The position numbers and the translations under genes were made by a program. The notes under the pieces were generated by a model. It was not told the DNA's origin. It was given only the letters and a program-made list of their open reading frames with translations, and made no database searches. Below, piece after piece: positions 11,187 through 26,272 of a DNA stretch of 64,000 nt. The stretch is from Oscillospiraceae bacterium (GTDB lineage Bacteria; Bacillota; Clostridia; Oscillospirales; Ruminococcaceae). The stretch's first letter is position 1. Each line of letters starts with the position of its first letter. The DNA is taken from the NCBI GenBank assembly GCA_017468365.1, contig JAFUIS010000019.1:11009-75008 (forward strand), read 5' to 3'.

Positions 11187-11187
11187 A

Positions 11188-11337: not shown

Positions 11338-12220
11338 CAAGTCCATGGTGCTCGAGGACGCGGAAAAGCTTTTCTTTTTTATCTTCATTCATAATGCCGA
11401 GAGGCAGACGGCAAGGACCGAAATCATATCCGAGCATATTGAGCGCCGCTTTTACAGGAATGGGGTTTATATCCGAAAAAAGCGCATCAATAAGCGATAA
11501 AAGCGTTGTTTGCTTTCTTGAAGCCTCAAGAGTTTTGCCTTCAAAATAAAGGGAGCAAAGCTCGGTCATTTCCTTTGGAACTATGTTTGCGGCAACCGAA
11601 ATAACTCCTTTTGAGCCGATGCTCAAAAGAGGAACGGTAAGTTCGTCGTTTCCGGAATAAACGTCGATTTTGCCGCCGCAAAGGGAAAGTATGCGTTCGG
11701 ATTTTGCAACGTTTCCCGAAGCTTCTTTTACCGCACAGATAAAGGGATTTTCGGCAAGTTTTAAGAAGGTTTCGGGCTGAATATCCATTCCTGTTCTTGA
11801 AGGAACATTGTAAACGATTGTAGGAAGTTGGCAGTATTTTGTCACGAATGAATAGTGCTCCAAAAGTCCGCTTTCGTTCGCTTTGTTATAATAAGGTGTG
11901 ACGGAAAGAATCGCATCCGCACCTGCATTTCTTGCGTTCAGAGCAAGTCTTGCGGCGTGGTGTGTGTTGTTGCTTCCGGCACCGGCAATAAGCGGCACAC
12001 GATGTTTTATAACGTCCTTTGCACAGCATATGATATTATACTGTTCCTCGTCCGAAAGGGTTGCGGATTCGCCTGTGGTACCGTTTACGATTATGGCGTC
12101 GACGCCTTTTTCGATAAGTTCATCGATAAAGTCGGCATATTTTTTTAAATCTATCGAGCCATCGGCTCTCATGGGCGTAACAACTGCAACTCCGCAGCCT
12201 TTGAATATTGTGTTTTTCAT
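11333..12220 (-). CDS. dapA: 4-hydroxy-tetrahydrodipicolinate synthase
   Basis: 295 aa, full-length DapA-like (GTTGESATL, AVKEASGN); adjacent to asd. Confidence 0.9.
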   Translation of the reverse strand: MKNTIFKGCGVAVVTPMRADGSIDLKKYADFIDELIEKGVDAIIVNGTTGESATLSDEEQYNIICCAKDVIKHRVPLIAGAGSNNTHHAARLALNARNAGADAILSVTPYYNKANESGLLEHYSFVTKYCQLPTIVYNVPSRTGMDIQPETFLKLAENPFICAVKEASGNVAKSERILSLCGGKIDVYSGNDELTVPLLSIGSKGVISVAANIVPKEMTELCSLYFEGKTLEASRKQTTLLSLIDALFSDINPIPVKAALNMLGYDFGPCRLPLGIMNEDKKEKLFRVLEHHGLV

Positions 12221-12283
12221 AAAAAAATCCTCCGCGGTAAAGTTTAAGAAAACTTTATGCGGAGGAAAAATTTATTATGTTAA

Positions 12284-13363
12284 TTAATCAAAATAACCTT
12301 TTGCGGCGTAAAGTTCTGCCATAAGAACGTTGCCGCCTGCGGCACCGCGAAGGGTGTTATGAGAAAGGCTTACAAATTTATAGTCATACTGGCTGTCAGG
12401 ACGAAGACGTCCGATGGAAACGCCCATGCCTTTTTCAAGGTTGCGGTCAAGTTTTGCCTGGGGACGGTCCGGTTCTTCAAAATAGGTGAGAAAATGTTCC
12501 GGTGCGGAAGGAAGACCGAGAAGCTGGGGTTCACCTTTATATTCCTTCCAGAGTTCTTTTATCTCTTCTTCGGAAGGCTTGTTTTCAAAGCTTACAAAAA
12601 CCGCAGCGGTATGTCCGTCGGAAACAGGAACGCGAAGGCACTGGGTGGTAATGGCGGGAGCGGAAGCGTTGACGATTTTTCCGTCTTGGAGTTTTCCCCA
12701 GATTTTAAGAGGTTCGTTTTCGCTTTTTTCTTCTTCGCCGCCGATATAGGGGATAAGGTTATCCACCATTTCGGGCCAGCGGTCAAAGTTTTTTCCTGCG
12801 CCGGAAATTGCCTGGTAAGTGCAGGCAAGAACTTTAGTTATACCGAATTTCATAAGAGGATGAAGTGCGGGAACGTAGCTTTGAATGGAACAGTTGGATT
12901 TTACGGAAATGAAGCCGCGTTTTGTTCCGAGACGTGCTTTCTGGGCGGAAACAACTTCCATATGTTCCGGGTTTATTTCGGGAATTATCATCGGAACGTC
13001 GGAAACACCGCGGTTTGCGCTGTTGTTGGACATAACGGGACATTCGAGTTTTGCATATTTTTCTTCAAGTTCTTTGGTAGCCGCTTTATCCATGTTGACC
13101 GCGCAGAAAACGAAATCAACAAGCGAAGCGATTCCTTCTGCATCTTTTTCAGCGTCGAGAACGGTCATCTCTTTTACGGAATCGGGAATGGGAGCTTCCA
13201 TTGCCCAGCGGCCGCAAACGGCCTCTTCATAGGTTTTTCCGGCGCTTCTTCCGGAAGCGGCAAGAACTTCAATATGGAACCAGGGATGTTCGGAAAGAAG
13301 AGTGATAAGGCGCTGACCTACCATTCCGGTGGCACCGATGACACCGACCTTATAATTTTTCAT
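12284..13363 (-). CDS. asd: aspartate-semialdehyde dehydrogenase
   Basis: 359 aa; N-terminal GATGMVGQ NAD(P) fold, active-site region SNCSIQ. Confidence 0.9.
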   Translation of the reverse strand: MKNYKVGVIGATGMVGQRLITLLSEHPWFHIEVLAASGRSAGKTYEEAVCGRWAMEAPIPDSVKEMTVLDAEKDAEGIASLVDFVFCAVNMDKAATKELEEKYAKLECPVMSNNSANRGVSDVPMIIPEINPEHMEVVSAQKARLGTKRGFISVKSNCSIQSYVPALHPLMKFGITKVLACTYQAISGAGKNFDRWPEMVDNLIPYIGGEEEKSENEPLKIWGKLQDGKIVNASAPAITTQCLRVPVSDGHTAAVFVSFENKPSEEEIKELWKEYKGEPQLLGLPSAPEHFLTYFEEPDRPQAKLDRNLEKGMGVSIGRLRPDSQYDYKFVSLSHNTLRGAAGGNVLMAELYAAKGYFD

Positions 13364-13390
13364 GAACAGAGCCTCCTTTTATAAAATAAC

Positions 13391-13419
13391 TTGCAATAAA
13401 AGGCTTATTGCAATATAAT
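13391..13419 (+). promoter_or_regulatory. consensus-like sigma-A promoter for queA, embedded in a 9-bp inverted repeat
   Basis: TTGCAA, 17-nt spacer, TATAAT; TTGCAATAA-aaggc-TTATTGCAA palindrome spans the spacer. Confidence 0.6.
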
Positions 13420-13508
13420 ATATAAGTTATCTAAATATGTTTATGATTTTATCATTACATATTTTTCATGTCAATATTTTTATTAAAATTCAGATAAACG
13501 GTGATTTG

Positions 13509-14534
13509 ATGAAAACAAGTGATTTTTATTTTGACCTTCCGGAAGAGCTTATAGCACAGCATCCGGCAGACCAGCGCGACCATTCCAGGCTTATGCATCT
13601 TGACAGAGAGACCGGAGAGGTAGAGCACAAACATTTTTATGAAATAATTGACCTTCTTGAACCTGGTGACCTTCTTGTTCTTAACAACTCAAGGGTAATC
13701 CCTGCAAGACTTATCGGCGAAAGGGAAGACACCCATTCTCCCATCGAGTTCCTTCTTCTCAAACAGAATGATCTTGACGTATGGGAGATCCTTGTCCGTC
13801 CGGGAAAACACGCCAAGATCGGAAAAAGGTTTGTTTTTGGCGGCGGACTTCTTAAAGCGGAAGTTATCGACATCGTAGAAGATGGAAATCGAATCGTAAA
13901 ATTCGAGCACGAAGGCAATATCTATAACGTTCTTGACGAAATTGGACAGATGCCGCTTCCGCCATACATAACCGAAAAACTTGCGGATAAAGAACGTTAC
14001 CAGACCGTTTATTCCGATCCCATCGGTTCTGCGGCGGCACCTACTGCAGGACTTCACTTTACCAACGAGCTTCTTGAAAAGATTCGTGAAAAGGGAGTCA
14101 AAACTGCGTTTGTAACTCTTCATGTCGGTCTCGGAACTTTCCGTCCCGTAAAAGTTGAAGATTTTGAACACCACATCATGCATACAGAACATTACGTTCT
14201 TCCGGAAGAGACCGCAAAGCTTATCAATGAAACCAAAGCCGCGGGCCACCGCGTTATTGCTGTCGGTACCACTTCCTGCAGGACGCTTGAATCCGTTGCT
14301 GCAAAATACGGTGAAATAAGACCCGATGATGACGATACCAGCATTTTTATCTATCCCGGATTCAAATTCAAGGTTCTTGACGGACTTATCACCAACTTCC
14401 ACCTTCCGGAAAGCACCCTTATAATGCTTGTTTCTGCATTTGCGGGTTATGAAAACGTTATGAACGCTTATCAGGAAGCGATAAACGAAAGATACCGTTT
14501 CTTCAGTTTCGGAGATTCCATGGCGATTCTTTAA
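13509..14534 (+). CDS. queA: S-adenosylmethionine:tRNA ribosyltransferase-isomerase
   Basis: Start at [19 protein letters not shown] (typical QueA N-terminus); PLPPYI motif; upstream of tgt. Confidence 0.95.
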
Positions 14535-14543
14535 AAAATAAAA

Positions 14544-14570
14544 ACGACCGCTTTTGCGGTCGTTTTTTTG
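14544..14570. terminator. bidirectional terminator between queA and the rubredoxin gene
   Basis: ACGACCGC-tttt-GCGGTCGT flanked by an A-run and a T-run. Confidence 0.85.
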
Positions 14571-14596
14571 TTTTGAGAAAACTTATTATTTATCGA

Positions 14597-14770
14597 TTAT
14601 CCCTGAACGTCTTTTGCAACGTTTCTGAATTTGTCTTTGGGCATTTTGCAAAGGGGGCAATGAAAATCTTCGGGAAGGTCTTCAAATTTGGTTCCGGGTG
14701 CAATTCCTCTTTCGGGAATGCCTTTTTCTTCGTCATAGGTGTATCCGCAGATCATGCAAGTATATTTCAT
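14597..14770 (-). CDS. rubredoxin (57 aa; below the ORF-track cutoff)
   Basis: Hand translation: [57 protein letters not shown]. Two CxxC pairs in canonical rubredoxin spacing; GGAG RBS. Confidence 0.85.
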
Positions 14771-14864
14771 GGTATTTAACTCCTTTGTTTCAATTGATTT
14801 TTTATTGTGATTGTATTATACCCCTAATTTTTCCTTTTTTCAGTGACAAAGTCACATAAAAAAA

Positions 14865-15230
14865 TTATTTTTGCATTTTTCTGTAACTTTCAAGCTCTTC
14901 GGAGGTCATATGGTCTTCGAGTACGCCGAAGATGATTTTTCTGTCTCTGGCGCTTGCTCTTCCGAATGCGCTGAGCATAAGGCTTTCTTCGGTGCTCAGG
15001 GTTTTTATCGGAGCAGGGAAGCCGGTTATTCCCATAAGGTAGTCGAGCGATACGTCAAGGGCTTCCGCAATTTCGGCTGCGATGTCGGCCTGGGGCTTTC
15101 GGCTGTTATTGACATATCTTGAAAGGGTGGCTTCTGTTGCTCCTATTTTTTGGGCAAGCCACGCCTGGGTTATTCCGCGCTGCTTCATGATTTTTTTGAC
15201 TTTTCTTCCGAAATCCGCTATTTCTGCCAC
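14865..15230 (-). CDS. XRE-family helix-turn-helix transcriptional regulator
   Basis: N-terminal HTH ITQAWLAQKIGATEATLSRYVNNSRKP. Confidence 0.8.
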   Translation of the reverse strand: MAEIADFGRKVKKIMKQRGITQAWLAQKIGATEATLSRYVNNSRKPQADIAAEIAEALDVSLDYLMGITGFPAPIKTLSTEESLMLSAFGRASARDRKIIFGVLEDHMTSEELESYRKMQK

Positions 15231-15423
15231 TGTTATTTCCCCTTATATTGTAATTATACGAACTGTACTATAATAATACCACCTGAATTATACAATTGTC
15301 AAGAATTATTATCCAAATGGAAATATTGTTGAAAACATTATTTTCGAATTTATCACTTGAAAAGATTTCGCTATTAAGTTATACTTATATAGTTATATTA
15401 ATTTCCTATAAAAGAGGAGAACT

Positions 15424-16554
15424 ATGTTTACTGTTTTAAAAACTGAAGGAAGAGCCCGCAGAGCCGAGTTTGAAACCGTTCACGGAACCGTTCAGACTCC
15501 GGCATTCATGAACGTTGCGACCTGCGGAGCTATCAAAGGCGGCGTTGCCGCAGAAGACCTTAAAGAGCTTCATTGCCAGGTTGCTCTTTGCAACACTTAT
15601 CATCTTTCGCTTCGTCCCGGCGACCTTGTTGTAAAAGAACTCGGCGGACTTCATAAATTTATGAACTGGGACAGGCCTATCCTTACCGACAGCGGCGGCT
15701 TTCAGGTATTCAGCCTTTCCAAACTTCGTAAAATAAAAGAAGAGGGCGTTTATTTCAGAAGCCACCTTGACGGACATCGCATTTTCATGGGTCCGGAAGA
15801 ATCCATGCAGATCCAGTCCCACCTCGGAAGCACCATTGCAATGGCTTTTGACGAATGTGTTGAAAACCCCGCTCCCAAATCTTATGCAGCACAGTCCTGC
15901 CAGCGTACCACCAGATGGCTTCACCGCTGCAAAACCGAAATGGAAAGACTCAACTCTCTGCCTGATACCATCAATCCGCACCAGATGCTTTTTGGAATCA
16001 ACCAGGGCTGCACTTTTGAGGATCTTCGCGTTGAGCACATGAAAGAGATCGCAAAACTTGACCTTGACGGATACGCTATCGGCGGACTTGCAGTAGGTGA
16101 ACCCACCCTTGAAATGTACCGCATCATCGACGCCGTTGAGCCTTATATGCCCGTCAATAAACCCCGTTATCTTATGGGTGTAGGTACTCCGGTAAATATT
16201 CTTGAAGCTGTACACCTTGGCGTTGACCTTTTTGACTGTGTAATGCCCAGCCGTAACGCACGTCACGGCACCCTCTTTACCTGGCAGGGCATCCGCAACC
16301 TCAACAACGAAAAATACATCTATGACCAGGGACCCGTTGATCCGGAATGTGACTGTCCGACCTGCCGTCTTCACAGCAGAGCATATGTGCGTCATCTTCT
16401 TCGTGCAAACGAGCTTCTTGCGCACAGACTGACCGTTCAGCATAATCTTTATTTCTATAACACCCTTATGGAAAGAATCCGTGAGGCTCTTGATAACGGC
16501 ACTTTCGAGGAATTTTATCAGAAATACCGCGATATTCTCGGAAAAAGAATCTAA
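15424..16554 (+). CDS. tgt: queuine tRNA-ribosyltransferase
   Basis: 376 aa; TDSGGFQV and zinc site CDCPTC...H. Confidence 0.95.
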   Translation: MFTVLKTEGRARRAEFETVHGTVQTPAFMNVATCGAIKGGVAAEDLKELHCQVALCNTYHLSLRPGDLVVKELGGLHKFMNWDRPILTDSGGFQVFSLSKLRKIKEEGVYFRSHLDGHRIFMGPEESMQIQSHLGSTIAMAFDECVENPAPKSYAAQSCQRTTRWLHRCKTEMERLNSLPDTINPHQMLFGINQGCTFEDLRVEHMKEIAKLDLDGYAIGGLAVGEPTLEMYRIIDAVEPYMPVNKPRYLMGVGTPVNILEAVHLGVDLFDCVMPSRNARHGTLFTWQGIRNLNNEKYIYDQGPVDPECDCPTCRLHSRAYVRHLLRANELLAHRLTVQHNLYFYNTLMERIREALDNGTFEEFYQKYRDILGKRI

Positions 16555-16616
16555 AGCCTTGAAACAGATTTTTATTTAATTTATAATATCCATATAATCA
16601 ATCCGGAGGTAATAAA

Positions 16617-16973
16617 ATGAACAATCTTCCTTATCTTCTCAGCCTTTTCGGCACCGCAGAAGCTCCTGCAGAAGGCGGCGTACTTGAAAGCATTATCAGC
16701 TTTGCTCCCATTATCGTTGTACTCATCGTTTTCTATTTCATGCTCATCCGTCCTCAGCAGAAAAAAGACAAAGAAGACAGAGCGATGAGAGAGAATCTTG
16801 AAGTCGGCGACGAAATCGTTACCGCAGGCGGAATCATCGGTCTTGTTGTTTCCGTAAAAGAGGATACCGTCGTTATCGAAACCGGCAGCGACAGAAGCAA
16901 AGTCCGCATTGCAAAATGGGCTGTTGCACAGAACCTTACCGCAAAAGAAAAAGCAGACGCGGCTAAAAAATAA
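16617..16973 (+). CDS. yajC: preprotein translocase subunit YajC
   Basis: Single TM then FYFMLIRPQQKK motif; queA-tgt-yajC synteny. Confidence 0.9.
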   Translation: MNNLPYLLSLFGTAEAPAEGGVLESIISFAPIIVVLIVFYFMLIRPQQKKDKEDRAMRENLEVGDEIVTAGGIIGLVVSVKEDTVVIETGSDRSKVRIAKWAVAQNLTAKEKADAAKK

Positions 16974-17045
16974 GTTTTAAAAAGAATAAAGACGCTTCTT
17001 TCTGAATATCCTTTTGAAAAGGGATATCCGAAAGGAGCGTTTTTT

Positions 17046-17432
17046 ATGTCCGGAAAAATCATTAAAAAGATAGGCTTTTCGTCAGGTATCGGTGCGGGAA
17101 TCGGAATCATAATTTCATCGGTAATTATATTTCTCATTGCGGCGGTGCTTTCCGCAATGGATATACCCGCAATGATGATTGCACCGGCGACGGTTTTTGC
17201 CATTGCGGTCGGAAGCTTTTTTGGCGGATTCGTTTCGTCGAAAATATGCGGCGAAAAGGGAATAGTTTGCGGGGCTTTTTCCGGAGTCATTTTCTTTGCT
17301 GTTTTGCTTCTTGCGGGAACTTTTTTCGAAGGCGGAAATTTCGGAACCGGAGGAATTATAAAAACCGCGATGATAATGATATCCTGTATGACCGGCGGGA
17401 TAATTGGAGTTAATTATATTAAAAGAAAATAG
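17046..17432 (+). CDS. small polytopic membrane protein (YrzE/TIGR04086-like, by position and composition)
   Basis: 128 aa, Gly/Ile-rich, 3-4 predicted helices; sits after yajC as yrzE does in Bacillus. Confidence 0.45.
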   Translation: MSGKIIKKIGFSSGIGAGIGIIISSVIIFLIAAVLSAMDIPAMMIAPATVFAIAVGSFFGGFVSSKICGEKGIVCGAFSGVIFFAVLLLAGTFFEGGNFGTGGIIKTAMIMISCMTGGIIGVNYIKRK

Positions 17433-17500
17433 TTGCAAGCATTGAAATTATGTGCTATACTAACCATGTTGAAATGTATTATTTTCAGGAGGATAACATA

Positions 17501-17659
17501 ATGGAACACATTAAAACTGTTAACAACGCAAACCTTAAAGAATCTTGCGCAAAAGGCGGCTGCGGCGAATGCCAGGCTTCCTGCCAGTCTGCATGCAAAA
17601 CTTCCTGCACTGTTGCAAACCAGGAATGCGAAAACGAATCCCGCAAAGGCAACAAATAA
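17501..17659 (+). CDS. scfA: SCIFF (six-cysteines-in-forty-five) ribosomal peptide precursor
   Basis: ATG 17501 after AGGAGG; MEHIKTVNNANLKESCAKGGCGECQASCQSACKTSCTVANQEC; directly upstream of a radical SAM/SPASM gene. Confidence 0.85.
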   Translation: MEHIKTVNNANLKESCAKGGCGECQASCQSACKTSCTVANQECENESRKGNK

Positions 17660-17728
17660 TTATTATTGATTATTAAATTGCAGGTGTGCCAAACACGGCG
17701 CACCTGCCGTTTTTTTGGAGTAATTTAA

Positions 17729-19105
17729 ATGGTACATACTTTTTATCAAAACGGTTATTATATTGCTCTTGATGTAAACTCCGGCGCGGTACATGTTCTT
17801 GACAAGCTTGCTTTCGATCTTCTCAATAAGTTTGAGGACAAGCTTCCCGAAGAATGTCCCGCGGAGTTTGTAAAAGAGCTTTCCGGTGAATATCCCGAAC
17901 AGGATATTCTTGAAGTTTATTCTGAACTTCTCGGCCTTCAGAAAGCGGGCCAGCTTTTCAGCGAAGACGATTATGAGCGTTTTACCGATATGATGAAGGG
18001 CGCACCCATCAAATCCATGTGCCTTCACATTTCTCACGACTGCAACCTTCGCTGCAAATATTGCTTTGCTTCCACCGGCGACTTCGGCAAAGGCAGAAAA
18101 CTCATGCCCGTTGAAACCGGTAAAAAAGCGATCGATTTTCTTCTTACCCATTCCGGAAACCGCCACAACCTTGAACTTGACTTCTTCGGCGGCGAGCCTC
18201 TTATGAACTGGGACGCAGTAAAAGAGATCGTTGACTATGCAAGAAGCAAAGAAGAAGAATATAACAAGAAATTCCGCTTCACCGTTACCACCAACGGCGT
18301 TCTTCTTAATGATGACAGCATCGACTACATCAATAAAGAGATGAAAAACGTTGTTCTTTCTCTTGACGGAAGAAAGTGCGTAAACGACGCTATGCGCCTT
18401 ACCGTAAACGGAAAAGGAAGCTATGATATCTTTGTTCCCAAGTTCCAGAAGCTCGTTGAAAAACGTCTTCAGGGCGAAAACAAGGAATATTATGCACGCG
18501 GAACCTTTACCAAGAACAACCTTGACTTTGCAAAAGACGTTTATCATATTGCCGACGATCTCGGCTTTGATCAGCTGAGTGTTGAGCCTGTTATCGCAGA
18601 TCCCAGCGAGCCTTATGCTATCACCGAGGAAGATCTTCCAACCATTTTTGCCGAGTATGAAAAACTCGCGGTTGAAATGGTAAGAAGAAAGAAAGAAGAG
18701 GGCGGATGCTTTAACTTCTTCCACTTCATGATCGACCTTGACCAGGGTCCTTGTGCTATAAAGCGCCTTCGCGGATGCGGATGCGGCAACGAATACGTTT
18801 CCGTAACCCCCGATGGCGATATCTATCCCTGCCACCAGTTCGTAGGCAACGACGAATGGAAAATGGGCAATCTCGACGACGAAACCCTTGATATCGAGAT
18901 GAAAGATAAATTTGCGTGCTCGAATATCTATACCAAAGAAGGCTGCCGCGATTGCTGGGCAAGATTCTATTGCTCCGGCGGATGCAACGCAAACAACTAC
19001 AGTTTCAATAAGGATATCAACAAACCCGTTAAGATCTCCTGCGAACTTGAAAGAAAACGCGTTGAATGTGCTATCATGATAAAAGTTGCAATGGCAGACA
19101 AATAA
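17729..19105 (+). CDS. scfB: SCIFF radical SAM/SPASM maturase (thioether-forming)
   Basis: CNLRCKYC radical SAM cluster motif; Cys-rich SPASM C-terminus (CGCGNEY...CHQF, CRDCWARFYCSGGC). Confidence 0.9.
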   Translation: MVHTFYQNGYYIALDVNSGAVHVLDKLAFDLLNKFEDKLPEECPAEFVKELSGEYPEQDILEVYSELLGLQKAGQLFSEDDYERFTDMMKGAPIKSMCLHISHDCNLRCKYCFASTGDFGKGRKLMPVETGKKAIDFLLTHSGNRHNLELDFFGGEPLMNWDAVKEIVDYARSKEEEYNKKFRFTVTTNGVLLNDDSIDYINKEMKNVVLSLDGRKCVNDAMRLTVNGKGSYDIFVPKFQKLVEKRLQGENKEYYARGTFTKNNLDFAKDVYHIADDLGFDQLSVEPVIADPSEPYAITEEDLPTIFAEYEKLAVEMVRRKKEEGGCFNFFHFMIDLDQGPCAIKRLRGCGCGNEYVSVTPDGDIYPCHQFVGNDEWKMGNLDDETLDIEMKDKFACSNIYTKEGCRDCWARFYCSGGCNANNYSFNKDINKPVKISCELERKRVECAIMIKVAMADK

Positions 19106-19114
19106 AAAAACAAA

Positions 19115-19141
19115 AGCTCCGGAATATCCGGAGCTTTTTTA
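19115..19141 (+). terminator. Rho-independent terminator after scfB
   Basis: AGCTCCGG-aatat-CCGGAGCT then TTTTTT. Confidence 0.85.
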
Positions 19142-19190
19142 TTATATAATGATAGGGAAGTGGGAAAGGGAAGAGGGGAAGACCATAAAA

Positions 19191-19775
19191 ATGGACATTA
19201 AAAATATGCTGAACGTTGTTTTGAAAAACAGGATACTGATTTTTTGCTGTGCGGTGCTCATTGGAGGAAATGTTTTCGGAACGTGCGTGCTCAAAATTCT
19301 TCCGACTGAAGTTTGCAAAAATCTTTTCATTATAATTTCGCATAACGAAGGTGGTTTTATAAGCGAATTCATGAACAGATTCTGTTTTCCGGCAATAATT
19401 ATAACTGCGGTTTATTTTGCCGGATTCAGCATTTTCGGAAGATTTTCGGCACTCTTTTCAGTGTTTACATATGGAATTTATTATTCGTTTATAAATGGGA
19501 TAAATTATATGTTTTGCGGTGCGGAATATTTTGTAAAAAACGTGATTTCATATTTCAGTTTGCTTCTTTATTTCGGATTTTTTCTTATTCTTATGTCTGA
19601 AAATGCATTTTATTCGTCAAAAATATTATCGGATTCCGTAAAAATACAAAATGTCGAAAAACCGCATTTTAAAGCCAAAAACTTAACTGTAAAGTATATT
19701 AGTTTTACAGTGATTTTTGCGGTTTTTTCAGCATTTTCTTCTTATATTTCAATTATTCTTCAGCCGGTTCTTTAG
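19191..19775 (+). CDS. polytopic membrane protein, possibly SpoIIM-like
   Basis: Start at MDIKNML; ~5 hydrophobic segments in 194 aa. The SpoIIM idea rests only on size, topology and adjacency to a Xer-type gene. Confidence 0.35.
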   Translation: MDIKNMLNVVLKNRILIFCCAVLIGGNVFGTCVLKILPTEVCKNLFIIISHNEGGFISEFMNRFCFPAIIITAVYFAGFSIFGRFSALFSVFTYGIYYSFINGINYMFCGAEYFVKNVISYFSLLLYFGFFLILMSENAFYSSKILSDSVKIQNVEKPHFKAKNLTVKYISFTVIFAVFSAFSSYISIILQPVL

Positions 19776-20763
19776 GTTTTCTTTTGGGCGGCTTAACGTT
19801 TTTGAGGGGAGATTTGTTGGAAGCATCTTCGATTTGTTTGTTGCTTACATGGGTGTAAATTTCTGTGGTCGAAAGACTTTCGTGACCCAAAAGTTCTTTG
19901 AGCACGCGGATATCGACTCCGGCGTCCTGATAAAGTAAAGTCGCGGCAGTATGGCGAAGTTTATGAGGCGAAATTCCCATTCCGTCAAGCCCGGCTTCTT
20001 TCAGACAATGTTCCACGATTTGTTCCACACCTCGGGTGCTTATCCTTTTGCCGAAACGGTTCAAAAAAAGCGCGTTTTTATCGACTCTTTTGACTTTTTC
20101 GCCGGAATTGAGCACCGAAAGATAGCTTTCAATGGCATTCAGGCAGGAATTATTGAGATAAACAATGCGTTCTTTGTTGCCTTTACCAAGAAGTTTAAGC
20201 TGATTATCGCGTATATCATGAACATTGATTCCGCAAAGTTCCGAAACACGCATTCCACAGTTCAAAAACAGCGTAATTATGCAAAAATCTCGCTCTGTAA
20301 AGTTGGTTTCAACATGTGAAAGCAGTTCAAGCGACTGTTCAAGCGTAAGATATTTTGGAAGTGCTTTTTTAAGCTTTGGAGTTTCCAGATTGAGCATCGG
20401 GTTTTCCGAAAGCTTTCCGCTGGATACCGTAAGATATTTATAAAAGGATCTTATTGCGGAAACTTTTCTCGAACGCGCTTTGGCATCATTGTCATGGTTG
20501 CGCTGAAATTCCGAAAGAAATCTCATAGCATCGGTTCTTGTGGCGTTTTTTATCAAATCGAATGTTGCCGAACGTATTTTGATATCCTTATAATCAACGT
20601 CATCGGAAACCAGTCCGTTATCGATCATAAGAAATCTTATGAACGATCTTAAGTCAACGTAATAACCGTCGACGGTTCTGGGAGAGCGTCCTTTGATGGT
20701 TTCCATATAGAACAGAAAATCCTGAAGGAACTCCGGACAATCGTTAAGATGGTCTTTATTCAT
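19753..20763 (-). CDS. tyrosine site-specific recombinase, XerC/XerD family, with Lys/Pro-rich C-terminal tail
   Basis: 336 aa; SAM-like N-domain; catalytic signatures GMRVSEL, HKLRHTAAT, LLGHESLSTTEIYTH; tail KNVKPPKRKPKEPAEE; ATG 26 nt from the palindromic site. Confidence 0.9.
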   Translation of the reverse strand: MNKDHLNDCPEFLQDFLFYMETIKGRSPRTVDGYYVDLRSFIRFLMIDNGLVSDDVDYKDIKIRSATFDLIKNATRTDAMRFLSEFQRNHDNDAKARSRKVSAIRSFYKYLTVSSGKLSENPMLNLETPKLKKALPKYLTLEQSLELLSHVETNFTERDFCIITLFLNCGMRVSELCGINVHDIRDNQLKLLGKGNKERIVYLNNSCLNAIESYLSVLNSGEKVKRVDKNALFLNRFGKRISTRGVEQIVEHCLKEAGLDGMGISPHKLRHTAATLLYQDAGVDIRVLKELLGHESLSTTEIYTHVSNKQIEDASNKSPLKNVKPPKRKPKEPAEE

Positions 20764-20789
20764 AAAAATCCTCCTTTTCTTCTCCCCTT

Positions 20790-20819
20790 AACTTCGCTAA
20801 ATTTCTATTTAGCGAAATT
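20790..20819 (+). repeat. attL: dif-like recombination site
   Basis: AACTTCGCTAAA-TTTCTA-TTTAGCGAAATT; arms are inverted repeats with one mismatch; shares a 15-nt identical block with attR. Confidence 0.8.
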
Positions 20820-20849
20820 GACACTTACGTTTTAAGGGGGTACACTCGT

Positions 20850-22148
20850 ATGAAAAAATTTGTTGCTTTGGCTTTGTCTTTGGTGCTTGTTTTTTCTATG
20901 GGTGTACCCTCTTTTGGTGCAACATCTGTTTCTATTGATGAATCCGGTGTTTTTGCTCCGGATAAATCTAACACAAATTACTCTACAAATACTGTTTTTA
21001 CGAATTTAAACATTCTTGAAGCGATTCGCGTTCTTGCGGATAGTTCTGCTTATGATATTCATCAGCTTAAAGTTCTTTTTTCTACTGGCTCTTATAAAAC
21101 CGTTGCTGACGCATTAAATCTTTATTTTAGTGGTGCAGTCGCTGATGTTAATTCCTATGGTAACGGTAATCTTGGCGATATGATGAGCACTTTTGCTTAT
21201 TTGGGTAGAGAGATTCAAGGAATGAATTATTTTACTCCCTACTCCGGTGGCGAAGCAACTTCTCTTGATGAAGCATTAAACAAGAATCTTTTATATATTC
21301 AAAATCAGCTTCGAGTTATTTCGGACAGTATGGGTGCAACTTCTGCAAGTTCCGGTTTAATGTCCGGTTGGACTTTGTCCGGTGTTCCCTCTCCAGAGGG
21401 CTACGATTCTTCTTGGTATCGTCGTATTTTGATGAATCTTTATTCTTTCCGTCTTGACTTTGCACGTCTTTACGACGGAACTTGGGCGGATTCTACTAAT
21501 TATGCTGATAGTTTCTTTTATCAAACATATTTACAAAATAAAATTCAATCTGATAATGTAGAAGGCCTTTTAAATGGTTGGTCTGCTACATCTACTGCGT
21601 ATCCGGACGGATATGAAAACTCTTGGTATCGTGCTATTAATCAAAGATTATATGCTTTTCAAAGTTCTTGGGTTAATATAATGAATCAAGTTATGATTCC
21701 ACGTGTAAATTCTATTCAAAGTCATCTCTTTGATATCTTAGATGATACTGATATGTTGCAACAAGTTCTTGCCGATGAAGATGACCTTGCGATGAAAGAT
21801 TCTCTTGCATCTTCAAAAACCGAAGTTGTTGACTTTGTCGGAAATGGTATTACTTCCTCGAATGGTTCTTCCTTTTCGCTTATGTCCGGTATAACTGACG
21901 GAATCGGCTTTGCTACTGATTTCAATGAGTTTTTTTCAATGCCTGATATCGGTTTAGGTGATATATTTAAAGTATTTGATAATACTTCGGAATCCCTTTC
22001 GTGGTTTACGGAAGAAACTGCTTCAAATATAGATACCGTTCCGGCTACATATTCGAGAGAATCGAATCCGCAGACGGAAATTGTCACTTCGTATTATGAG
22101 GATAGAAAATCCGAATTCAACGATATGTGGGGTGATATAGTTGGTTGA
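20850..22148 (+). CDS. secreted phage protein with internal duplicated module (candidate adsorption or host-recognition protein)
   Basis: Signal peptide MKKFVALALSLVLVFSMGVPSFGA; repeated GW..S..P(E/D)GY(D/E)xSWYR..(N/L)..LY.F module. Confidence 0.6.
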   Translation: MKKFVALALSLVLVFSMGVPSFGATSVSIDESGVFAPDKSNTNYSTNTVFTNLNILEAIRVLADSSAYDIHQLKVLFSTGSYKTVADALNLYFSGAVADVNSYGNGNLGDMMSTFAYLGREIQGMNYFTPYSGGEATSLDEALNKNLLYIQNQLRVISDSMGATSASSGLMSGWTLSGVPSPEGYDSSWYRRILMNLYSFRLDFARLYDGTWADSTNYADSFFYQTYLQNKIQSDNVEGLLNGWSATSTAYPDGYENSWYRAINQRLYAFQSSWVNIMNQVMIPRVNSIQSHLFDILDDTDMLQQVLADEDDLAMKDSLASSKTEVVDFVGNGITSSNGSSFSLMSGITDGIGFATDFNEFFSMPDIGLGDIFKVFDNTSESLSWFTEETASNIDTVPATYSRESNPQTEIVTSYYEDRKSEFNDMWGDIVG

Positions 22149-22287
22149 CCCTATAATCAATGCTGTTGAAGTTTTTCTCGTTTTTTATGAGAATCTCCCT
22201 CAACCGATTATTGCTTTGTTTAATCTTGTTTTGTTTCTTATGGTGATTTTCTACATTATAAGAACAGTAGAAAAGGCGGGTTCGTGA
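22141..22287 (+). CDS. small hydrophobic phage protein (48 aa, TTG start; minor coat candidate)
   Basis: Hand-translated; GGGGTG RBS; one TM (IIALFNLVLFLMVIFYII); overlaps neighbours at both ends. Confidence 0.35.
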   Translation: MVDPIINAVEVFLVFYENLPQPIIALFNLVLFLMVIFYIIRTVEKAGS

Positions 22288-22430
22288 TGTTGTTTAATAT
22301 TTTTGATATTCTTTTCGGTCTTTTTCCTGCTTGGTTTGCTACATTTTTGATTATTGCTTTTTTTGTTACGGTTATAGTCTTGCTTATTCGTCTTGTTGTT
22401 TGGATTATTGAAATTATTCCCGGATTCTAA
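22287..22430 (+). CDS. small hydrophobic phage protein (47 aa)
   Basis: ATG overlaps the previous stop (TGATG); MLFNIFDILFGLFPAWFATFLIIAFFVTVIVLLIRLVVWIIEIIPGF. Confidence 0.5.
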   Translation: MLFNIFDILFGLFPAWFATFLIIAFFVTVIVLLIRLVVWIIEIIPGF

Positions 22431-22442
22431 AGGGGTGATTAT

Positions 22443-22634
22443 ATGACCGCTGACGGTCTTTCATTCATACAATGGTTTTTTCCTGCTATGTGGTCTTTTT
22501 TTACAAGTTGGCATATTCCCGGAACTGGTGTCAGCCCTGCCGGGTGGCTCTTGTTCTTGCTTCTTGCAGGAATTGTTTTGAAAATTGTATTTCATATTCT
22601 ACACTCCGGTTGGCTTTCCGGTGGAGGTAATTAA
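22443..22634 (+). CDS. small membrane phage protein (63 aa)
   Basis: Two hydrophobic segments; GGGG RBS; stop abuts the next ATG. Confidence 0.55.
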   Translation: MTADGLSFIQWFFPAMWSFFTSWHIPGTGVSPAGWLLFLLLAGIVLKIVFHILHSGWLSGGGN

Positions 22635-23228
22635 ATGAAGATTATATGTGTTTTGCTTTCAATCGTCTTTCTCTTTTCCTTTTCGGTAACAGCTTTCGCC
22701 GAAGTTGCATTGGACGAACTCGGCGAAGTTGTTCCGGTTGAAGATAGTACCCAGAGCGAAGAATCTGGCGAAGCTACTTCCGGAAATGAGTATCTCGATA
22801 TGGTTTTAAATAATATGCAGAATGATATTGACGATTTACAGTCTGATGTTGAGGTGCTTCAAGATGATGTATCTGCGATTTCTGAATCAGATGTTGTATC
22901 TGATTCGACAGTTGAAAATTCTACTTCCGAAGAACCGGAAGAAATCAACCCGGAATTAGGTATTGATGAAAGTACGCCAACGGCTGTAAATGTTTATGCT
23001 TTAAATCCGATAACTCCGGAAGATACAACGGGTTTGAAGTCCGTTCTTCTTTCTCTTATCGGTGATTATGACGCTATTGTAGTTGAATACGAATACACGG
23101 GTAGTAATAGCTATACAAACTATCTTCGTGAAGTTCAACCGGATTATGTTTGGTTGTGCTCTGCTGCAATATTCCTTGTTATAATCTATTCTGTGTTTAG
23201 GCTTGGGGGTGCTCTGTTCCGTGGATAA
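22635..23228 (+). CDS. acidic secreted phage protein with C-terminal membrane anchor (pIII-like minor coat candidate)
   Basis: Signal peptide MKIICVLLSIVFLFSFSVTAFA, D/E/S-rich middle, C-terminal TM VWLCSAAIFLVIIYSVF plus basic end. Confidence 0.55.
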   Translation: MKIICVLLSIVFLFSFSVTAFAEVALDELGEVVPVEDSTQSEESGEATSGNEYLDMVLNNMQNDIDDLQSDVEVLQDDVSAISESDVVSDSTVENSTSEEPEEINPELGIDESTPTAVNVYALNPITPEDTTGLKSVLLSLIGDYDAIVVEYEYTGSNSYTNYLREVQPDYVWLCSAAIFLVIIYSVFRLGGALFRG

Positions 23229-23229
23229 T

Positions 23230-23364
23230 ATGCAAGCTTTTGCCCTTTGGCTTTTGGAAGAAATTCCGAATTTTCTCTTGTCTGAACCGATATGTTACTT
23301 TGTCGGTATCGCTATTTTGTTCTTGGTAATAAAGCTGTTCGGCTCTATTATAAAAATTCATTAA
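23230..23364 (+). CDS. small hydrophobic phage protein (44 aa)
   Basis: Hand-translated MQAFALWLLEEIPNFLLSEPICYFVGIAILFLVIKLFGSIIKIH; starts 1 nt after the previous stop. Confidence 0.5.
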   Translation: MQAFALWLLEEIPNFLLSEPICYFVGIAILFLVIKLFGSIIKIH

Positions 23365-23379
23365 AAGGAGTTTTAATTT

Positions 23380-23559
23380 ATGGAAGGAAGTGTAACTGTG
23401 GCAACTATTCTCGAATCTGCAGGACTTATCGTCACCGAGGCTCTCTCTTGGCTCACCGAAACCGTTACCACCGTCGTAGGCTCTCCGCTTCTTCTTATGT
23501 TCGTAATCCTCGGACTTGTCGGAACTGGCGTCGGTCTTATGCGTAGAATCATTGGCTGA
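23380..23559 (+). CDS. major coat protein candidate (pVIII-like, 59 aa)
   Basis: AAGGAG RBS; amphipathic acidic N-part, TM PLLLMFVILGLVGTGVGL, basic C-end MRRIIG; strong terminator follows, as after gene VIII in Ff phages. Confidence 0.7.
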   Translation: MEGSVTVATILESAGLIVTEALSWLTETVTTVVGSPLLLMFVILGLVGTGVGLMRRIIG

Positions 23560-23569
23560 TGATTCCGTG

Positions 23570-23607
23570 GGGAGTGCACACGCTTTGCGTGATCGCACTC
23601 CCTTTTT
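23570..23607 (+). terminator. strong terminator after the coat gene
   Basis: GGGAGTGC ... GCACTCCC with nested CACGC/GCGTG pairing, then TTTTT. Confidence 0.8.
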
Positions 23608-23637
23608 CGCTATTTTGTATTTAGGTGGTGCACACTT

Positions 23638-24360
23638 TTGTATATTGTCTTTTTTCTACTTCTGTTTTTTGGCACAATATTTGCCGTTCTTGCTTATCGT
23701 TTCCGTAATCCTTTCAAGCTGTATTATATTTTCGGAAAAAAGGGCTCGGGAAAATCTCTGTTTATGGTTAAGTTTATGTTGAGGTATCTTCGTAAAGGTT
23801 GGACGGTTTACACCGATATTTCCGATGTAAATATTCCCGGTGTTCGTCTTATCAATGCGAAAGACCTCGACACTTTCCGTCCGGAAGAAAATTCCGTTAT
23901 ATTTCTTGATGAAGTCGGAATTACTTTCGATAATCGTAAATTCAAAACATTCACGGACGGTATGCGTGATTATTTCAAGTTTCAGCGTAAATATAAATGC
24001 GTTGTTTATATGAACTCCCAAAGCTTTGATGTTGATAAAAAAATTCGTGACCTTATAGACCGTTTTTACCTCGCAACAAGCCTTGGTAATGTTATTTCAA
24101 TATACCGACCTATAAATCGTAAGGTTGCCCTCGTAGAAGCTTCTGCGCAGGGTGAGAGCCGTGTTGCTGATAACCTTGTATTTGCTCCGATATGGGAATG
24201 GAAATTCATCTTTATGCCGAACTATTTCAAATGGTTCGACAGCTTCGAAGCTCCATACCGTGAACTTATCCCATTCAAAGAAATCCCCGGTAAACTTCCG
24301 AAAGACCCTACACCGAAGCAGGCTCTAAAATTGATTCATAAAGGACTGAAAAAGAAATGA
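23638..24360 (+). CDS. Zot/pI-like P-loop morphogenesis ATPase
   Basis: TTG start after GGTGG; Walker A GKKGSGKS, Walker B VIFLDEVG, then QRKYKCVVYMNSQSFDVDKKIRDLI resembling the Zot-family core. Confidence 0.75.
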   Translation: MYIVFFLLLFFGTIFAVLAYRFRNPFKLYYIFGKKGSGKSLFMVKFMLRYLRKGWTVYTDISDVNIPGVRLINAKDLDTFRPEENSVIFLDEVGITFDNRKFKTFTDGMRDYFKFQRKYKCVVYMNSQSFDVDKKIRDLIDRFYLATSLGNVISIYRPINRKVALVEASAQGESRVADNLVFAPIWEWKFIFMPNYFKWFDSFEAPYRELIPFKEIPGKLPKDPTPKQALKLIHKGLKKK

Positions 24361-24539
24361 TTAAACTATGGCTTGGAAATAAACTCCGCTTTCTCTCGCA
24401 CCTTGGAATGTTCCTCTGTGGCTTGTGCTCGCTCATTGCACCGTGGTATATTGCGCTTGTAATCTTCGTGCTTGCTTTCGTACTCGACTATGTCGCATTT
24501 TCTGCGGTAGCGCAGTATTTTACAACCGATGAGGGGTAA
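24357..24539 (+). CDS. small two-TM phage protein coupled to the ATPase gene
   Basis: ATGA overlap with the Zot-like gene; 60 aa, hydrophobic. Confidence 0.55.
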   Translation: MIKLWLGNKLRFLSHLGMFLCGLCSLIAPWYIALVIFVLAFVLDYVAFSAVAQYFTTDEG

Positions 24540-24564
24540 AGGGGGCTTTGCCCTCTTTATTCGC

Positions 24565-24638
24565 CTTTGAGCGCCGTGCTCAAAGTTCCGTGCTTGTCAT
24601 ATGCTCAACACATATCCCGTGCTCAAGCTGTGCGTGCT
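24565..24638 (+). repeat. hairpin plus iteron-like CCGTGCT repeats in the phage noncoding region
   Basis: CTTTGAGC-gccgt-GCTCAAAG (24565-24585); CCGTGCT at 24574, 24588 and 24617; GCGTGCT at 24632. Confidence 0.6.
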
Positions 24639-24660
24639 GTTACCTTATTCAGCATAAAAA

Positions 24661-24700
24661 GGCAGGATCACCGCCATAAATATGGCGGTGCCTGCCTTTT
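24661..24700. terminator. bidirectional terminator between the phage structural module and the RHH gene
   Basis: GGCAGG-at-CACCGCCATA-aa-TATGGCGGTG-CCTGCC flanked by A5 and T4. Confidence 0.85.
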
Positions 24701-24701
24701 C

Positions 24702-24842
24702 TTATTCTTGTTCCTCAAGATACTTTTTGATAATTTGTGCTATTAAATTAGATACGCTTCTGCCCTCTTTCTGTACCTGCTCTTTTAACTTCTCTGTAAT
24801 TTCGTCATCTAAAAATGTTGATATTCTGTTTTTGTCCGTCAT
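24702..24842 (-). CDS. ribbon-helix-helix (CopG/Arc-like) repressor, 46 aa
   Basis: Start at MTDKNRISTFLDDEITEKLKEQVQKEGRSVSNLIAQIIKKYLEEQE; RHH pattern (beta strand RISTFLD plus two helices); the only minus-strand gene in the element. Confidence 0.7.
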   Translation of the reverse strand: MTDKNRISTFLDDEITEKLKEQVQKEGRSVSNLIAQIIKKYLEEQE

Positions 24843-24879
24843 ATAAATGTTCCTTTCTTGCTGAATTTGCAAATTTCGG

Positions 24880-24908
24880 TTGACTTGGTGGTACAACCGT
24901 AGTACAAT
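24880..24908 (+). promoter_or_regulatory. candidate promoter of the phage replication module
   Basis: TTGACT, 17-nt spacer, TACAAT. Confidence 0.55.
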
Positions 24909-24914
24909 GCAGTT

Positions 24915-24940
24915 GTTCAAAAGTTGTCCTACTTTTGAAC
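24915..24940. promoter_or_regulatory. operator-like perfect inverted repeat in the divergent promoter region
   Basis: GTTCAAAAGT-tgtcct-ACTTTTGAAC, just downstream of the -10 element. Confidence 0.55.
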
Positions 24941-25033
24941 CCTCATATTATAGCCTGGGGAGTTGTGACCGGAGAATCCCTCTCCCCTCGCCACCTTATG
25001 AGGAAATAAAACTTGACGAAATGAGGTAAAATT

Positions 25034-25288
25034 ATGGACAGAAAGATTACTATCGTTGGTATTGAAGAATACGACTTCAAAACTCGTGAGAATGAAACTC
25101 TCGAAATGGCAAACATTCACTATCAGTATCAGAATCAGCGAGTTGAAGGCATAGCCTGCGGTCGTGTGACTGTATCTAAAAAAATGCTTGACCGTTATAA
25201 TATTCAGCTTAATGCAGAATATATCGGAGCGTTTTATCTTGACGCTAATAAACGCGAAAAACTTGCGGCACTTTTCGAGGAGGCTTGA
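25034..25288 (+). CDS. phage protein, 84 aa (position and size compatible with an ssDNA-binding pV-like protein; unproven)
   Basis: GAGG RBS; first gene of the replication module. Confidence 0.4.
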   Translation: MDRKITIVGIEEYDFKTRENETLEMANIHYQYQNQRVEGIACGRVTVSKKMLDRYNIQLNAEYIGAFYLDANKREKLAALFEEA

Positions 25289-25290
25289 AA

Positions 25291-25497
25291 GTGATTACTA
25301 CTTATGATTCCCTTCATACTATGAACGATAATATTTATGATGTTATTTACGATTCTGAACGTAAAGCCTTTGGTGTTATCGTAGCTTGGGACGATTTCAC
25401 CTGTGAACCACAGATTAAATATTGTGATTCTCTCGATAATGCAAAGCGCCTTGCTATTGGCTTTGTAATTGCTGAAAATAATATTTTTAATTTTTAA
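25291..25497 (+). CDS. phage hypothetical protein (~68 aa)
   Basis: GTG 25291 lies 8 nt after GAGGAGG; the track's TTG at 25285 is the alternative start. Confidence 0.45.
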   Translation: MITTYDSLHTMNDNIYDVIYDSERKAFGVIVAWDDFTCEPQIKYCDSLDNAKRLAIGFVIAENNIFNF

Positions 25498-25526
25498 TCC
25501 GCACGGACTACGAGAATGTGCGGATT
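25496..25526 (+). promoter_or_regulatory. candidate rolling-circle double-strand origin hairpin with nick-site-like loop
   Basis: AATCCGCAC-ggACTACGAgaat-GTGCGGATT, 40 nt upstream of rep. Confidence 0.6.
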
Positions 25527-25566
25527 GTAGCATGTAGCAAAATTAAATAAATTGAGGTTTTGATTT

Positions 25567-26151
25567 ATGAGTAGAAATTCAAATTTCAACCCGGAAACAT
25601 CAAAACGTCGTGTCTTTTTTATTGAACTTTATCCCGATTCTTCAACATATAATTGTGATGAACTTTTAGCTGTTGCTCGTTCTTTTCCCGAATATGCTTT
25701 GATTTGTCACGATAAAGATGTTAATTCGGTTACTGGGGAAGTTAAAAAACCGCATTATCATATTGTAGTGCGTGTTAAGCCTTCCCTGCTTTCTACGGTG
25801 GCGAATAAGTTTCCCGGTTTGGAAACTCGCTTTATTGAGGTAACACACGAATTTAGGTGGTGTTTACGCTATCTAATTCACTTGGACGATATAACAAAAT
25901 ATCAATATCCGCACGAAGCTGTTGAAACTAACATTTCGGATATCGAATCCTATTGGCGTATTTCTTCGGAATGGTCGCTTGTTCGTGAAATGATTCAGCT
26001 TCGGTTGACTGGTTCAACATGGTATCAAGTGTTTGACTTTTGCGGAAAAAATCAATGTTATGATGTCTTTCGCCGTAATATAGCGATAATCAAACTCGTT
26101 GCCGGAGAATCCGACTGCACCGATTATGGTGAATGGGATGAAACAATATGA
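25567..26151 (+). CDS. HUH rolling-circle replication initiator, pMV158 RepB (Rep_2)-like
   Basis: ICHDKDV...KKPHYHIVVRV (HUH motif) and CLRYLIHLDDITKYQY (catalytic Tyr motif); 194 aa. Confidence 0.8.
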   Translation: MSRNSNFNPETSKRRVFFIELYPDSSTYNCDELLAVARSFPEYALICHDKDVNSVTGEVKKPHYHIVVRVKPSLLSTVANKFPGLETRFIEVTHEFRWCLRYLIHLDDITKYQYPHEAVETNISDIESYWRISSEWSLVREMIQLRLTGSTWYQVFDFCGKNQCYDVFRRNIAIIKLVAGESDCTDYGEWDETI

Positions 26152-26181
26152 ACTTCGGAAAAGTTTCTATTTAGCGAAGTT
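26151..26181 (+). repeat. attR: dif-like recombination site
   Basis: AACTTCGGAAAAG-TTTCTA-TTTAGCGAAGTT; first base overlaps the rep stop codon. Confidence 0.8.
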
Positions 26182-26272
26182 GGCTCTATGGAAATTATAG
26201 CACAAAAAGCCTCTTCCCGTCAAGTGTTTGCATCAAAAAAAGCCTGATTTTATCAGGCCTTTTTGCTTATTG

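Follow-up and report, generated by a model that had tools for sequence, protein, structure and literature searches.

Results

Gene orientation changes at a recombinase-linked palindrome

We analysed a 64,000-nt stretch of DNA (the window) from an Oscillospiraceae bacterium (assembly GCA_017468365.1, contig JAFUIS010000019.1), which its nearest protein relatives likewise place among uncultured Oscillospiraceae, and in which the prevailing gene strand changes at a locus composed of a Xer-family tyrosine recombinase gene, a palindrome upstream of it and a small inovirus-like prophage. The window very probably spans the replication terminus and dimer-resolution region of the chromosome, with the two replichores converging at about 20.8 kb on a Xer-dif module that holds an inovirus of the IMEX type (integrative mobile elements exploiting Xer). 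A terminus at this locus had been proposed in the initial annotation from gene orientation; it is supported by the GC skew of related genomes, by a polar sequence motif and by a conserved chromosomal junction, and not by the GC skew of the window itself.

Genes were called with a self-trained codon-model caller and named from NCBIfam, Pfam and PHROGs, and tRNAs were located with ARAGORN. The strand flip is real. On the left arm (1–19752), 13 genes lie on the + strand (11.3 kb) against 7 on the − strand (6.7 kb), so that + genes account for 63% of coding bases, a bias that is only moderate; on the right arm (26190–64000), 43 features lie on the − strand (33.8 kb) against 4 on the + strand (2.1 kb). 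An earlier count of 14 + and 6 − genes on the left is thus corrected in its numbers and retained in its + majority, and the earlier picture of the right arm, with about 40 − genes, three − tRNAs and four + exceptions at 29.3–31.7 kb, agrees with ours. Relatives were collected by scanning one genome per GTDB species, which gave 80 loci with recombinase homologs at 46–94% identity; the genes flanking the locus converge in 30/49 relatives and diverge in 3.

The prophage lies exactly within the palindrome

The phage is inserted exactly in the palindrome, and each end of the prophage carries a copy of the site. The copy next to the recombinase gene, attL, reads AACTTCGCTAAAT TTCT ATTTAGCGAAATT, has arms complementary at 12/13 positions and lies 26 nt upstream of the recombinase start. 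At the far end, attR reads ACTTCGGAAAAGT TTCT ATTTAGCGAAGTT; it has the same spacer and one host arm, its phage-derived arm is degenerate (6/13), and no G-run abuts it. A contig of the same species lacks the prophage, as do three related species. In these four independent assemblies, window position 20820 is joined straight to 26151 with an overlap of about 30 nt that corresponds to the palindrome. One of these contigs (L003, same species) is 99.9% identical to the window, two (L007 and L008) are about 80% and one (L009) about 70% identical at the nucleotide level. Because the prophage-free contigs make this join across the palindrome, the host attB can be read from them as AACTTCGCTAAAT-TTCT-ATTTAGCGAAGTT, a perfect 13+4+13 palindrome ending in GAAGTT. 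The reconstructed phage attP is ACTTCGGAAAAGT-TTCT-ATTTAGCGAAATT, in which one arm is good, the spacer is unchanged and the other arm is poor. Judging from these sequences, attL is presumably a still-functional dif-like site and attR a crippled one. No canonical 28-bp dif of the B. subtilis type (11-6-11, with a TTATGTAAA-type XerD arm) was found in the window at up to 3 mismatches.

The empty junctions also bear on whether the strand flip could be an artefact, namely an assembly error or chimera formed at a repeat, a recent large inversion ending at the prophage, or a contig of plasmid origin. Assemblies often break at this point, and on the right arm GC skew and gene orientation disagree, both of which would fit such an origin. 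The same junction is found without the prophage in four independent assemblies, including species at 70–80% nucleotide identity, which rules out misassembly, and both arms are rich in single-copy housekeeping genes (clpX, lon, radA, tyrS, recN, dxs). Furthermore, the polarity of the motif described below agrees with gene polarity on both arms, as a recent inversion would not yield. We consider an artefact of any of these kinds extremely unlikely, and the misassembled or plasmid-borne contig that the initial annotation had named as grounds for abandoning its reading is not what the data indicate.

Several metagenome and Logan contigs of this species (L001, L004 and L006) stop within the palindrome (~20816), some 54 nt upstream of the recombinase gene. 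Breaks at this position are consistent with prophage-bearing and empty alleles that coexist and break the assembly graph.

The palindrome is conserved upstream of a distinct Xer-family recombinase gene

In about 47 of the 80 species, a palindrome with 12–13 of 13 complementary positions lies 21–370 nt upstream of the recombinase gene, while random 520-nt windows reach at least 12/13 in 3/171 cases. The inner AAAT-N4-ATTT is conserved; bases of the outer arms differ between taxa in a co-varying manner, as in the pairs TTTCGCT/AGCGAAA, TTATACA/TGTATAA and CTCAACA/TGTTGAG. A conserved core with co-varying arms is characteristic of a symmetric site that evolves together with the protein bound to it. 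Extra half-sites, defined as one arm plus spacer at up to 2 mismatches, occur 0.6–6 kb from the palindrome at some loci (L066 at ~7372 and ~9864; L025 at ~16198; L028 at ~4302), and may derive from other elements integrated there, as remnants or as their boundaries.

The recombinase itself has 336 amino acids and matches both the SAM-like N-terminal domain (PF02899) and the catalytic domain (PF00589) of the family. Residues R171, K193/K196, H266, R269, H293 and Y302 are invariant among 11 homologs, and we read them as the probable R-K-H-R-H-Y catalytic set. The protein scores below the NCBIfam cut-offs for XerC (TIGR02224; 233 bits against 335), XerD (TIGR02225; 216 against 330), XerS (NF003462; 149 against 267) and archaeal XerA (NF040815; 197 against 220). 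Despite these scores, the NCBI Prokaryotic Genome Annotation Pipeline (PGAP) names its relatives 'tyrosine recombinase XerC'. By sequence, the closest solved structures are XerA of Pyrococcus (4a8e) and XerD, with XerH (5jjv) distant at 59 bits. Homologs occur in Oscillospiraceae, Ruminococcaceae, Acutalibacteraceae, Gemmiger, Faecalibacterium, Caproiciproducens and others, with one top match per genome, and the gene has the appearance of a conserved housekeeping gene, evolving as if vertically inherited. Because the arms of the site are perfectly symmetric, both are probably bound by this one Xer protein.

Its position at a prophage end, together with scores below the XerC and XerD equivalog cut-offs, raises the possibility that the recombinase instead serves the prophage, or an older mobile element, as its integrase, with the palindrome merely its attB or attL and the strand convergence a coincidence. 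This is very unlikely. The gene and palindrome keep their neighbours in genomes that lack the prophage, both within the species and in others, the pair is present in some 47 species of several families, and the gene follows the pattern of vertical inheritance described above. Moreover, no match to a recombinase was found among the eleven listed open reading frames (ORFs) of 20820–26151, and the related free phage genomes of about 5 kb that we examined encode neither such a gene nor any integrase.

GC skew switches at the module in relatives

For the comparison of skew around the recombinase module, we used 36 species with full 10-kb flanks. Measured over 5-kb flanks, skew switches from + to − at the module in 28/36 loci and from − to + in 0; at pseudo-sites placed 5 kb to either side, the switch is seen in 1/36 and 2/36. 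The mean skew difference is 0.137 ± 0.018 at the module and about 0 at the pseudo-sites. The switch is found in 30/32 palindrome-bearing loci against 6/17 palindrome-free loci (Fisher p = 2.4e-5). It is also kept in 8/13 loci that have no flanking gene in common with the window, and such retention beside unrelated flanks indicates more than inherited synteny. We also separated skew according to the strand of ORFs of 250 amino acids or more; the strand-independent term was +0.047 upstream and −0.044 downstream, with a coding term of +0.05 to +0.07.

Within the window, the signal is almost flat. Cumulative GC skew continues upward across the locus and the raw skew does not change sign; read along the recombinase gene, the two flanks have skews of +0.012 and −0.026 over 10 kb. 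A change of skew at the locus is clear in relatives and weak in the window; the initial annotation had named the cumulative GC skew of the complete chromosome as the check. Skew at third codon positions (GC3) ranges from −0.28 to −0.45, a preference for C-ending codons that is stronger in housekeeping genes, and the near-flat profile arises because such codons make coding strands C-rich and cancel the replication signal. In individual genes GC3 skew reaches −0.3 to −0.7, and that of four-fold sites down to −1.0 (for example 36451–37671, 59596–62361 and 63016–63489), again most strongly in housekeeping genes. Two possible discriminators were set aside. GC3 and four-fold-site skew by gene class were dropped, as the codon preference for C varies between genes. 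Intergenic skew does flip, from +0.070 on the left to −0.118 on the right, and was not counted, as Shine-Dalgarno purine runs that follow gene orientation could cause it.

A polar AGGGRAG motif changes strand beside the palindrome

We ranked 7- and 8-mers by strand bias in the relatives and then tested the resulting motif in the window. The ranking returned AGGGGAG (94:4), AGGGGAGA (44:0), GCAGGGGA (47:1) and AGGGAAG (90:10). Overall, AGGGGAG is distributed 109:5 between the leading and lagging strands of the relatives; it is sense by 64:1 in co-oriented ORFs and antisense by 23:1 in counter-oriented ORFs. Between −10 kb and 0, about 0.83 of motif copies lie on the + strand, and beyond +1 kb about 0.15, a step that falls within 1 kb of the palindrome.

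The window behaves in the same manner. All 9 copies of AGGGRAG on the + strand lie at or before 19805 and all 11 on the − strand at or after 20782, a perfect partition whose break is beside the palindrome at 20790. This is the kind of switch in polar words similar to FtsK orienting polar sequences (KOPS) or SpoIIIE recognition sequences (SRS) that the initial annotation had anticipated around the locus. The shorter form AGGG(A/G)A is distributed 19+:2− on the left arm and 1+:27− on the right (p = 2e-10), all 8 copies in counter-oriented genes are antisense (8/8), and no other of the 949 frequent hexamers in the window is as skewed as AGGGAA. Motif polarity thus follows the chromosome arm and not the gene strand. 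Known guiding motifs gave no such pattern in the window: the L. lactis KOPS GAAGAAG is not polar (20:21), and counts of the B. subtilis SRS GAGAAGGG (2:0) and the E. coli KOPS GGGNAGGG (0) were uninformative. A de novo search for 7- and 8-mers in the window alone returned mostly codon-context words such as TCTTGAAG, and only the hexamer AGGGAA stood out.

One copy of the motif stands in a fixed relation to the site. An AGGGGAG-like copy that reads outward starts 1–3 nt outside one end of the palindrome in 41/47 site-bearing loci. When sites are oriented by this abutting copy, the 4-nt spacer proves to be purine-rich (129/152 bases; AAAA, GAAT, AGAA). Relative to the recombinase gene, the copy is proximal in 27 loci, distal in 11 and present at both ends in 3. 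In the window it remains with attL, and the phage-derived site has no copy. The abutting motif and the purine spacer indicate that the real unit is asymmetric and of the form AAtTnnnCaAAAT-RAAW-ATTTtGnnnAaTt-n-AGGGgAG. From its placement, the abutting copy could give directionality to an otherwise symmetric site, for example by stalling or docking a translocase on one side.

The flip could also be a local junction of two conserved gene blocks of opposite orientation, unrelated to replication, with the recombinase and palindrome forming a resident recombination or autoregulation module. We consider this unlikely. The skew switch is kept beside unrelated flanking genes, goes with the palindrome and outlasts removal of the coding-strand term, and AGGGRAG polarity follows the arm over the gene strand and switches less than 1 kb from the palindrome, in the window as in relatives. 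A number of observations nevertheless favour a local junction or otherwise weigh against a terminus at the module. The window's own GC skew shows no sign change, and the skew of the whole 37.8-kb right arm is −0.012, of the wrong sign, with slightly more G on the expected lagging strand. Pooled GC3 values (left + −0.28, left − −0.45, right − −0.41, right + −0.28) fit the absence of a flip marginally better, which is weak evidence, within gene-to-gene scatter and expression-linked codon bias. Co-orientation of the left arm is just the 63% given above, and radA adjoins the module in 39/80 loci, which makes part of the pattern inherited synteny. CP181263.1, the one closed relative, carries the module 1.865 Mb into a record of 2.53 Mb (74%), with the palindrome near 1,865,060 as the record is numbered. 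About 33 of the 80 homolog loci have no palindrome within 500 nt. The relatives share ancestry, so that counts among them are not independent events, and the motif was found through a ranking by skew. No FtsK or SpoIIIE gene is present in the 64-kb window, and a second Xer paralog may be encoded elsewhere in the genome, the analysis having been confined to the window and to the relatives' loci.

The prophage belongs to a clade of small gut inoviruses

The prophage combines a Zot/pI ATPase, a rolling-circle Rep and small hydrophobic coat-like ORFs in about 5.3 kb, within the 5–12 kb expected of an inovirus. Features of an IMEX are present as well: no recombinase of its own is seen, it is integrated in a dif-like site, and its attP mimics that site. 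Its Zot protein shares 52–60% identity with the Zot proteins of circular ~5-kb genomes in the GenBank phage collection, recorded as 'Inovirus sp.', bajarodino and Dulem virus, and three free phage relatives that we compared have coat ORFs and Rep in common with it. A scan of the viral_contigs collection with the Zot protein gave no confirmed relative.

In the free relatives, the position equivalent to attP lies between rep and the adsorption-protein gene. Dif-like palindromes were sought in three related free inovirus genomes and none was found. Two records carry a complete tRNA-Thr(CGT) gene at the attP position of the prophage (MT135304.1 [L087] at 1557–1632 and MT135294.1 [L089] at 147–223). 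In a third (MT135306.1 [L088]), a near-identical sequence spans the record start at this position, and ARAGORN made no call. The AGGG(A/G)A copies within the prophage (21385, 24983, 25308 and 25782) are all on the − strand (4/4), antisense or intergenic to + genes. Their polarity agrees with that of the right arm, where the prophage now sits, and may be a mere effect of the phage + strand being rich in pyrimidines (AT skew about −0.2).

Gene map of the window

The features of the window are collected in Table 1. A 'SpoIIM-like' label had been attached to 19086–19775; this 229-amino-acid membrane ORF has no NCBIfam or Pfam match that would support it. In the related species L009, matches skip from window position 11874 to 4071, and the block at ~4.1–11.9 kb (Nudix, ABC ATPase, 1091-amino-acid FtsX-type permease, PstS-like) is missing, so the counter-oriented part of the left arm is variable. 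The 1091-amino-acid permease has no NCBIfam match. A rubredoxin gene and a gene for a 121-amino-acid helix-turn-helix (HTH) protein occupy 14597–15230 on the − strand, between queA and tgt on the opposite strand; the HTH protein has a weak score for the phage-repressor-like RstR family (50 bits against a cut-off of 80). On the other side of the module, in the upstream flanks of the relatives' loci, the cwlD-like amidase gene adjoins it in 31/80 species, as radA does in the 39 mentioned above. In B. subtilis radA is near the origin; here, in this order, it is terminus-proximal.

Table 1. Features of the 64-kb window, with coordinates counted from its first nucleotide
Feature	Position	Strand	Remarks
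Left chromosome arm	1–19752	putative leading strand +	13 + and 7 − genes
Left-arm + genes		+	clpX (cut by the window edge), lon, engB/ysxC, weak Nudix match, PstS-like, queA, tgt, yajC, DUF3792 gene, SCIFF, SCIFF maturase scfB, 229-aa membrane ORF
Left-arm − genes		−	ABC ATPase, 1091-aa FtsX-type permease, dapA, asd, rubredoxin, HTH gene
Xer-family tyrosine recombinase gene	19753–20763	−	
Abutting polar motif AGGGGAG	20782–20788	−	1 nt outside the palindrome; reads away from it
attL, 30-nt palindrome	20790–20819		
Inovirus-like prophage, ~5.3 kb	~20820–26151	+	except one ribbon-helix-helix (RHH) repressor
Secreted protein, 432 aa	20850–22148	+	
Small membrane/coat-like hydrophobic ORFs	22443–23559	+	
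Zot/pI morphogenesis ATPase	23638–24360	+	Pfam Zot 26.1 against cut-off 20.3; PHROGs Zot and pI matches
RHH repressor	24702–24920	−	
Rep_OBD rolling-circle initiator	25567–26151	+	Pfam 60 bits
attR, degenerate second site copy	26152–26181		
Right chromosome arm	26182–64000	putative leading strand −	43 − and 4 + features
Right-arm − genes, named		−	DUF6873, radA, cwlD-like amidase, lower-ligand cobalamin (cob) genes, tyrS, recN, argR, nadK, tlyA, dxs, ispA, xseA
Three tRNAs	56.5–56.8 kb	−	
Right-arm + features	29.3–31.7 kb	+	yerC-like gene, methyltransferase, tRNA-Val, 322-aa ORF

Discussion

A model for the module and its phage

Based on these patterns, we propose that the Xer-family recombinase binds both arms of the palindrome, probably alone, and would resolve chromosome dimers there. 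AGGGRAG, which on each arm points toward the site, would, if it acts like KOPS and SRS, guide an FtsK/SpoIIIE-type translocase there, and the outward-reading copy abutting the palindrome would break the symmetry of the site. The 5.3-kb filamentous phage, lacking an integrase, would integrate as IMEX do, by Xer-type recombination through a one-armed mimic attP. Such an event would leave a near-intact attL by the recombinase gene and a crippled attR at the far end of the prophage.

More tentatively, and with somewhat less than even confidence, we suggest that Oscillospirales (Oscillospiraceae, Ruminococcaceae and Acutalibacteraceae) possess a previously undescribed dimer-resolution module. It would consist of a single Xer protein outside XerC, XerD, XerS and XerA, a gene-linked palindrome that co-evolves with the protein, and one outward AGGGRAG 1–3 nt away; the abutting motif and purine-rich spacer would provide an asymmetry that usually comes from XerC/XerD heterodimers, and small gut inoviruses would exploit the site.

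A strand flip that marks the terminus is ordinary, textbook genome architecture; the interesting parts are the module, the polar motif and the assignment of a host to the inovirus. Recombinase gene, palindrome and AGGGRAG polarity together could mark the terminus at the level of sequence in a large gut clade that is mostly uncultured and in which GC skew is sometimes too weak, and could anchor peak-to-trough estimates of replication rate and the ordering of scaffolds in metagenome-assembled genomes. The inovirus clade of about 5 kb has so far consisted of records from faecal viromes of pig, rodent and lemur that name no bacterial host; the prophage gives it a host, Oscillospiraceae, and a probable lifestyle of Xer-dependent integration. 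Integration in the palindrome would also explain why metagenome assemblies break at this locus. For Xer biology, the findings point to a further gene-linked Xer/dif lineage beside XerS, XerH and XerA, and the abutting polar motif offers a testable idea for how a symmetric site could acquire directionality.

Comparison with known systems

The reviews list XerS, XerH and XerA as gene-linked or single-recombinase Xer systems, and our survey of the open-access literature found no Xer/dif module or polar motif for Clostridia or Oscillospirales, which is no proof of novelty. The closest parallel is XerS/difSL of streptococci and lactococci, in which the recombinase gene is linked to its site at the terminus (PMC1914069, PMC2965235, PMC5357621) and the FtsK-guiding motif in L. 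lactis is GAAGAAG (PMC3384302). Both systems are gene-site modules at a terminus, within Firmicutes lineages, with a polar motif unlike the E. coli KOPS, and in ours, as in XerS/difSL and XerH/difH, the site lies close to the gene (within the 21–370 nt given above in about 47 of the 80 species). They differ in that XerS has 356 amino acids, against 336 here, and its model scores the window protein well below cut-off; that difSL is 31 bp, asymmetric and built around an 11-bp centre, whereas the site described here is a perfect 13+4+13 palindrome of unrelated sequence; and that GAAGAAG shows no polarity in the window.

XerH/difH of Helicobacter and Campylobacter and archaeal XerA/dif resemble the module in being single-recombinase systems with nearly palindromic sites. 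Taxon and site sequence are different, the match to XerH is distant and that to XerA is below cut-off. To our knowledge, an abutting polar motif is not a described feature of either system.

AGGGRAG resembles the KOPS of E. coli and the SRS of B. subtilis in being a G-rich 7–8-mer with over 90% of its copies near dif on the leading strand, and in having a polarity that points to the site from both sides whatever the orientation of the genes. Its sequence, AGGG(G/A)AG, is different, and it is a candidate motif recognised by its polarity in sequence. We know of no KOPS or SRS copy that abuts a recombination site in fixed register. By published criteria, a KOPS candidate near dif should be skewed to at least 90% and occur at least once per 40 kb (PMC3384302), and the values for AGGGRAG lie within both.

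The prophage, finally, resembles the IMEX elements that use XerCD/dif, such as CTXphi, VGJphi, TLCphi and XacF1 (PMC5357621, PMC5666396). Like them, it is an integrase-less filamentous phage in a putative dimer-resolution site, with an attP that has one good and one divergent arm and with an intact-looking site regenerated at one prophage end. Unlike them, it resides in a Gram-positive-type gut anaerobe, in a window with no canonical 28-bp dif, and its target is a symmetric site beside the recombinase gene; it also comes from the clade of gut inoviruses of about 5 kb whose three examined free members carry tRNA-Thr(CGT) (two of them) or a near-identical sequence (the third) at the attP position.

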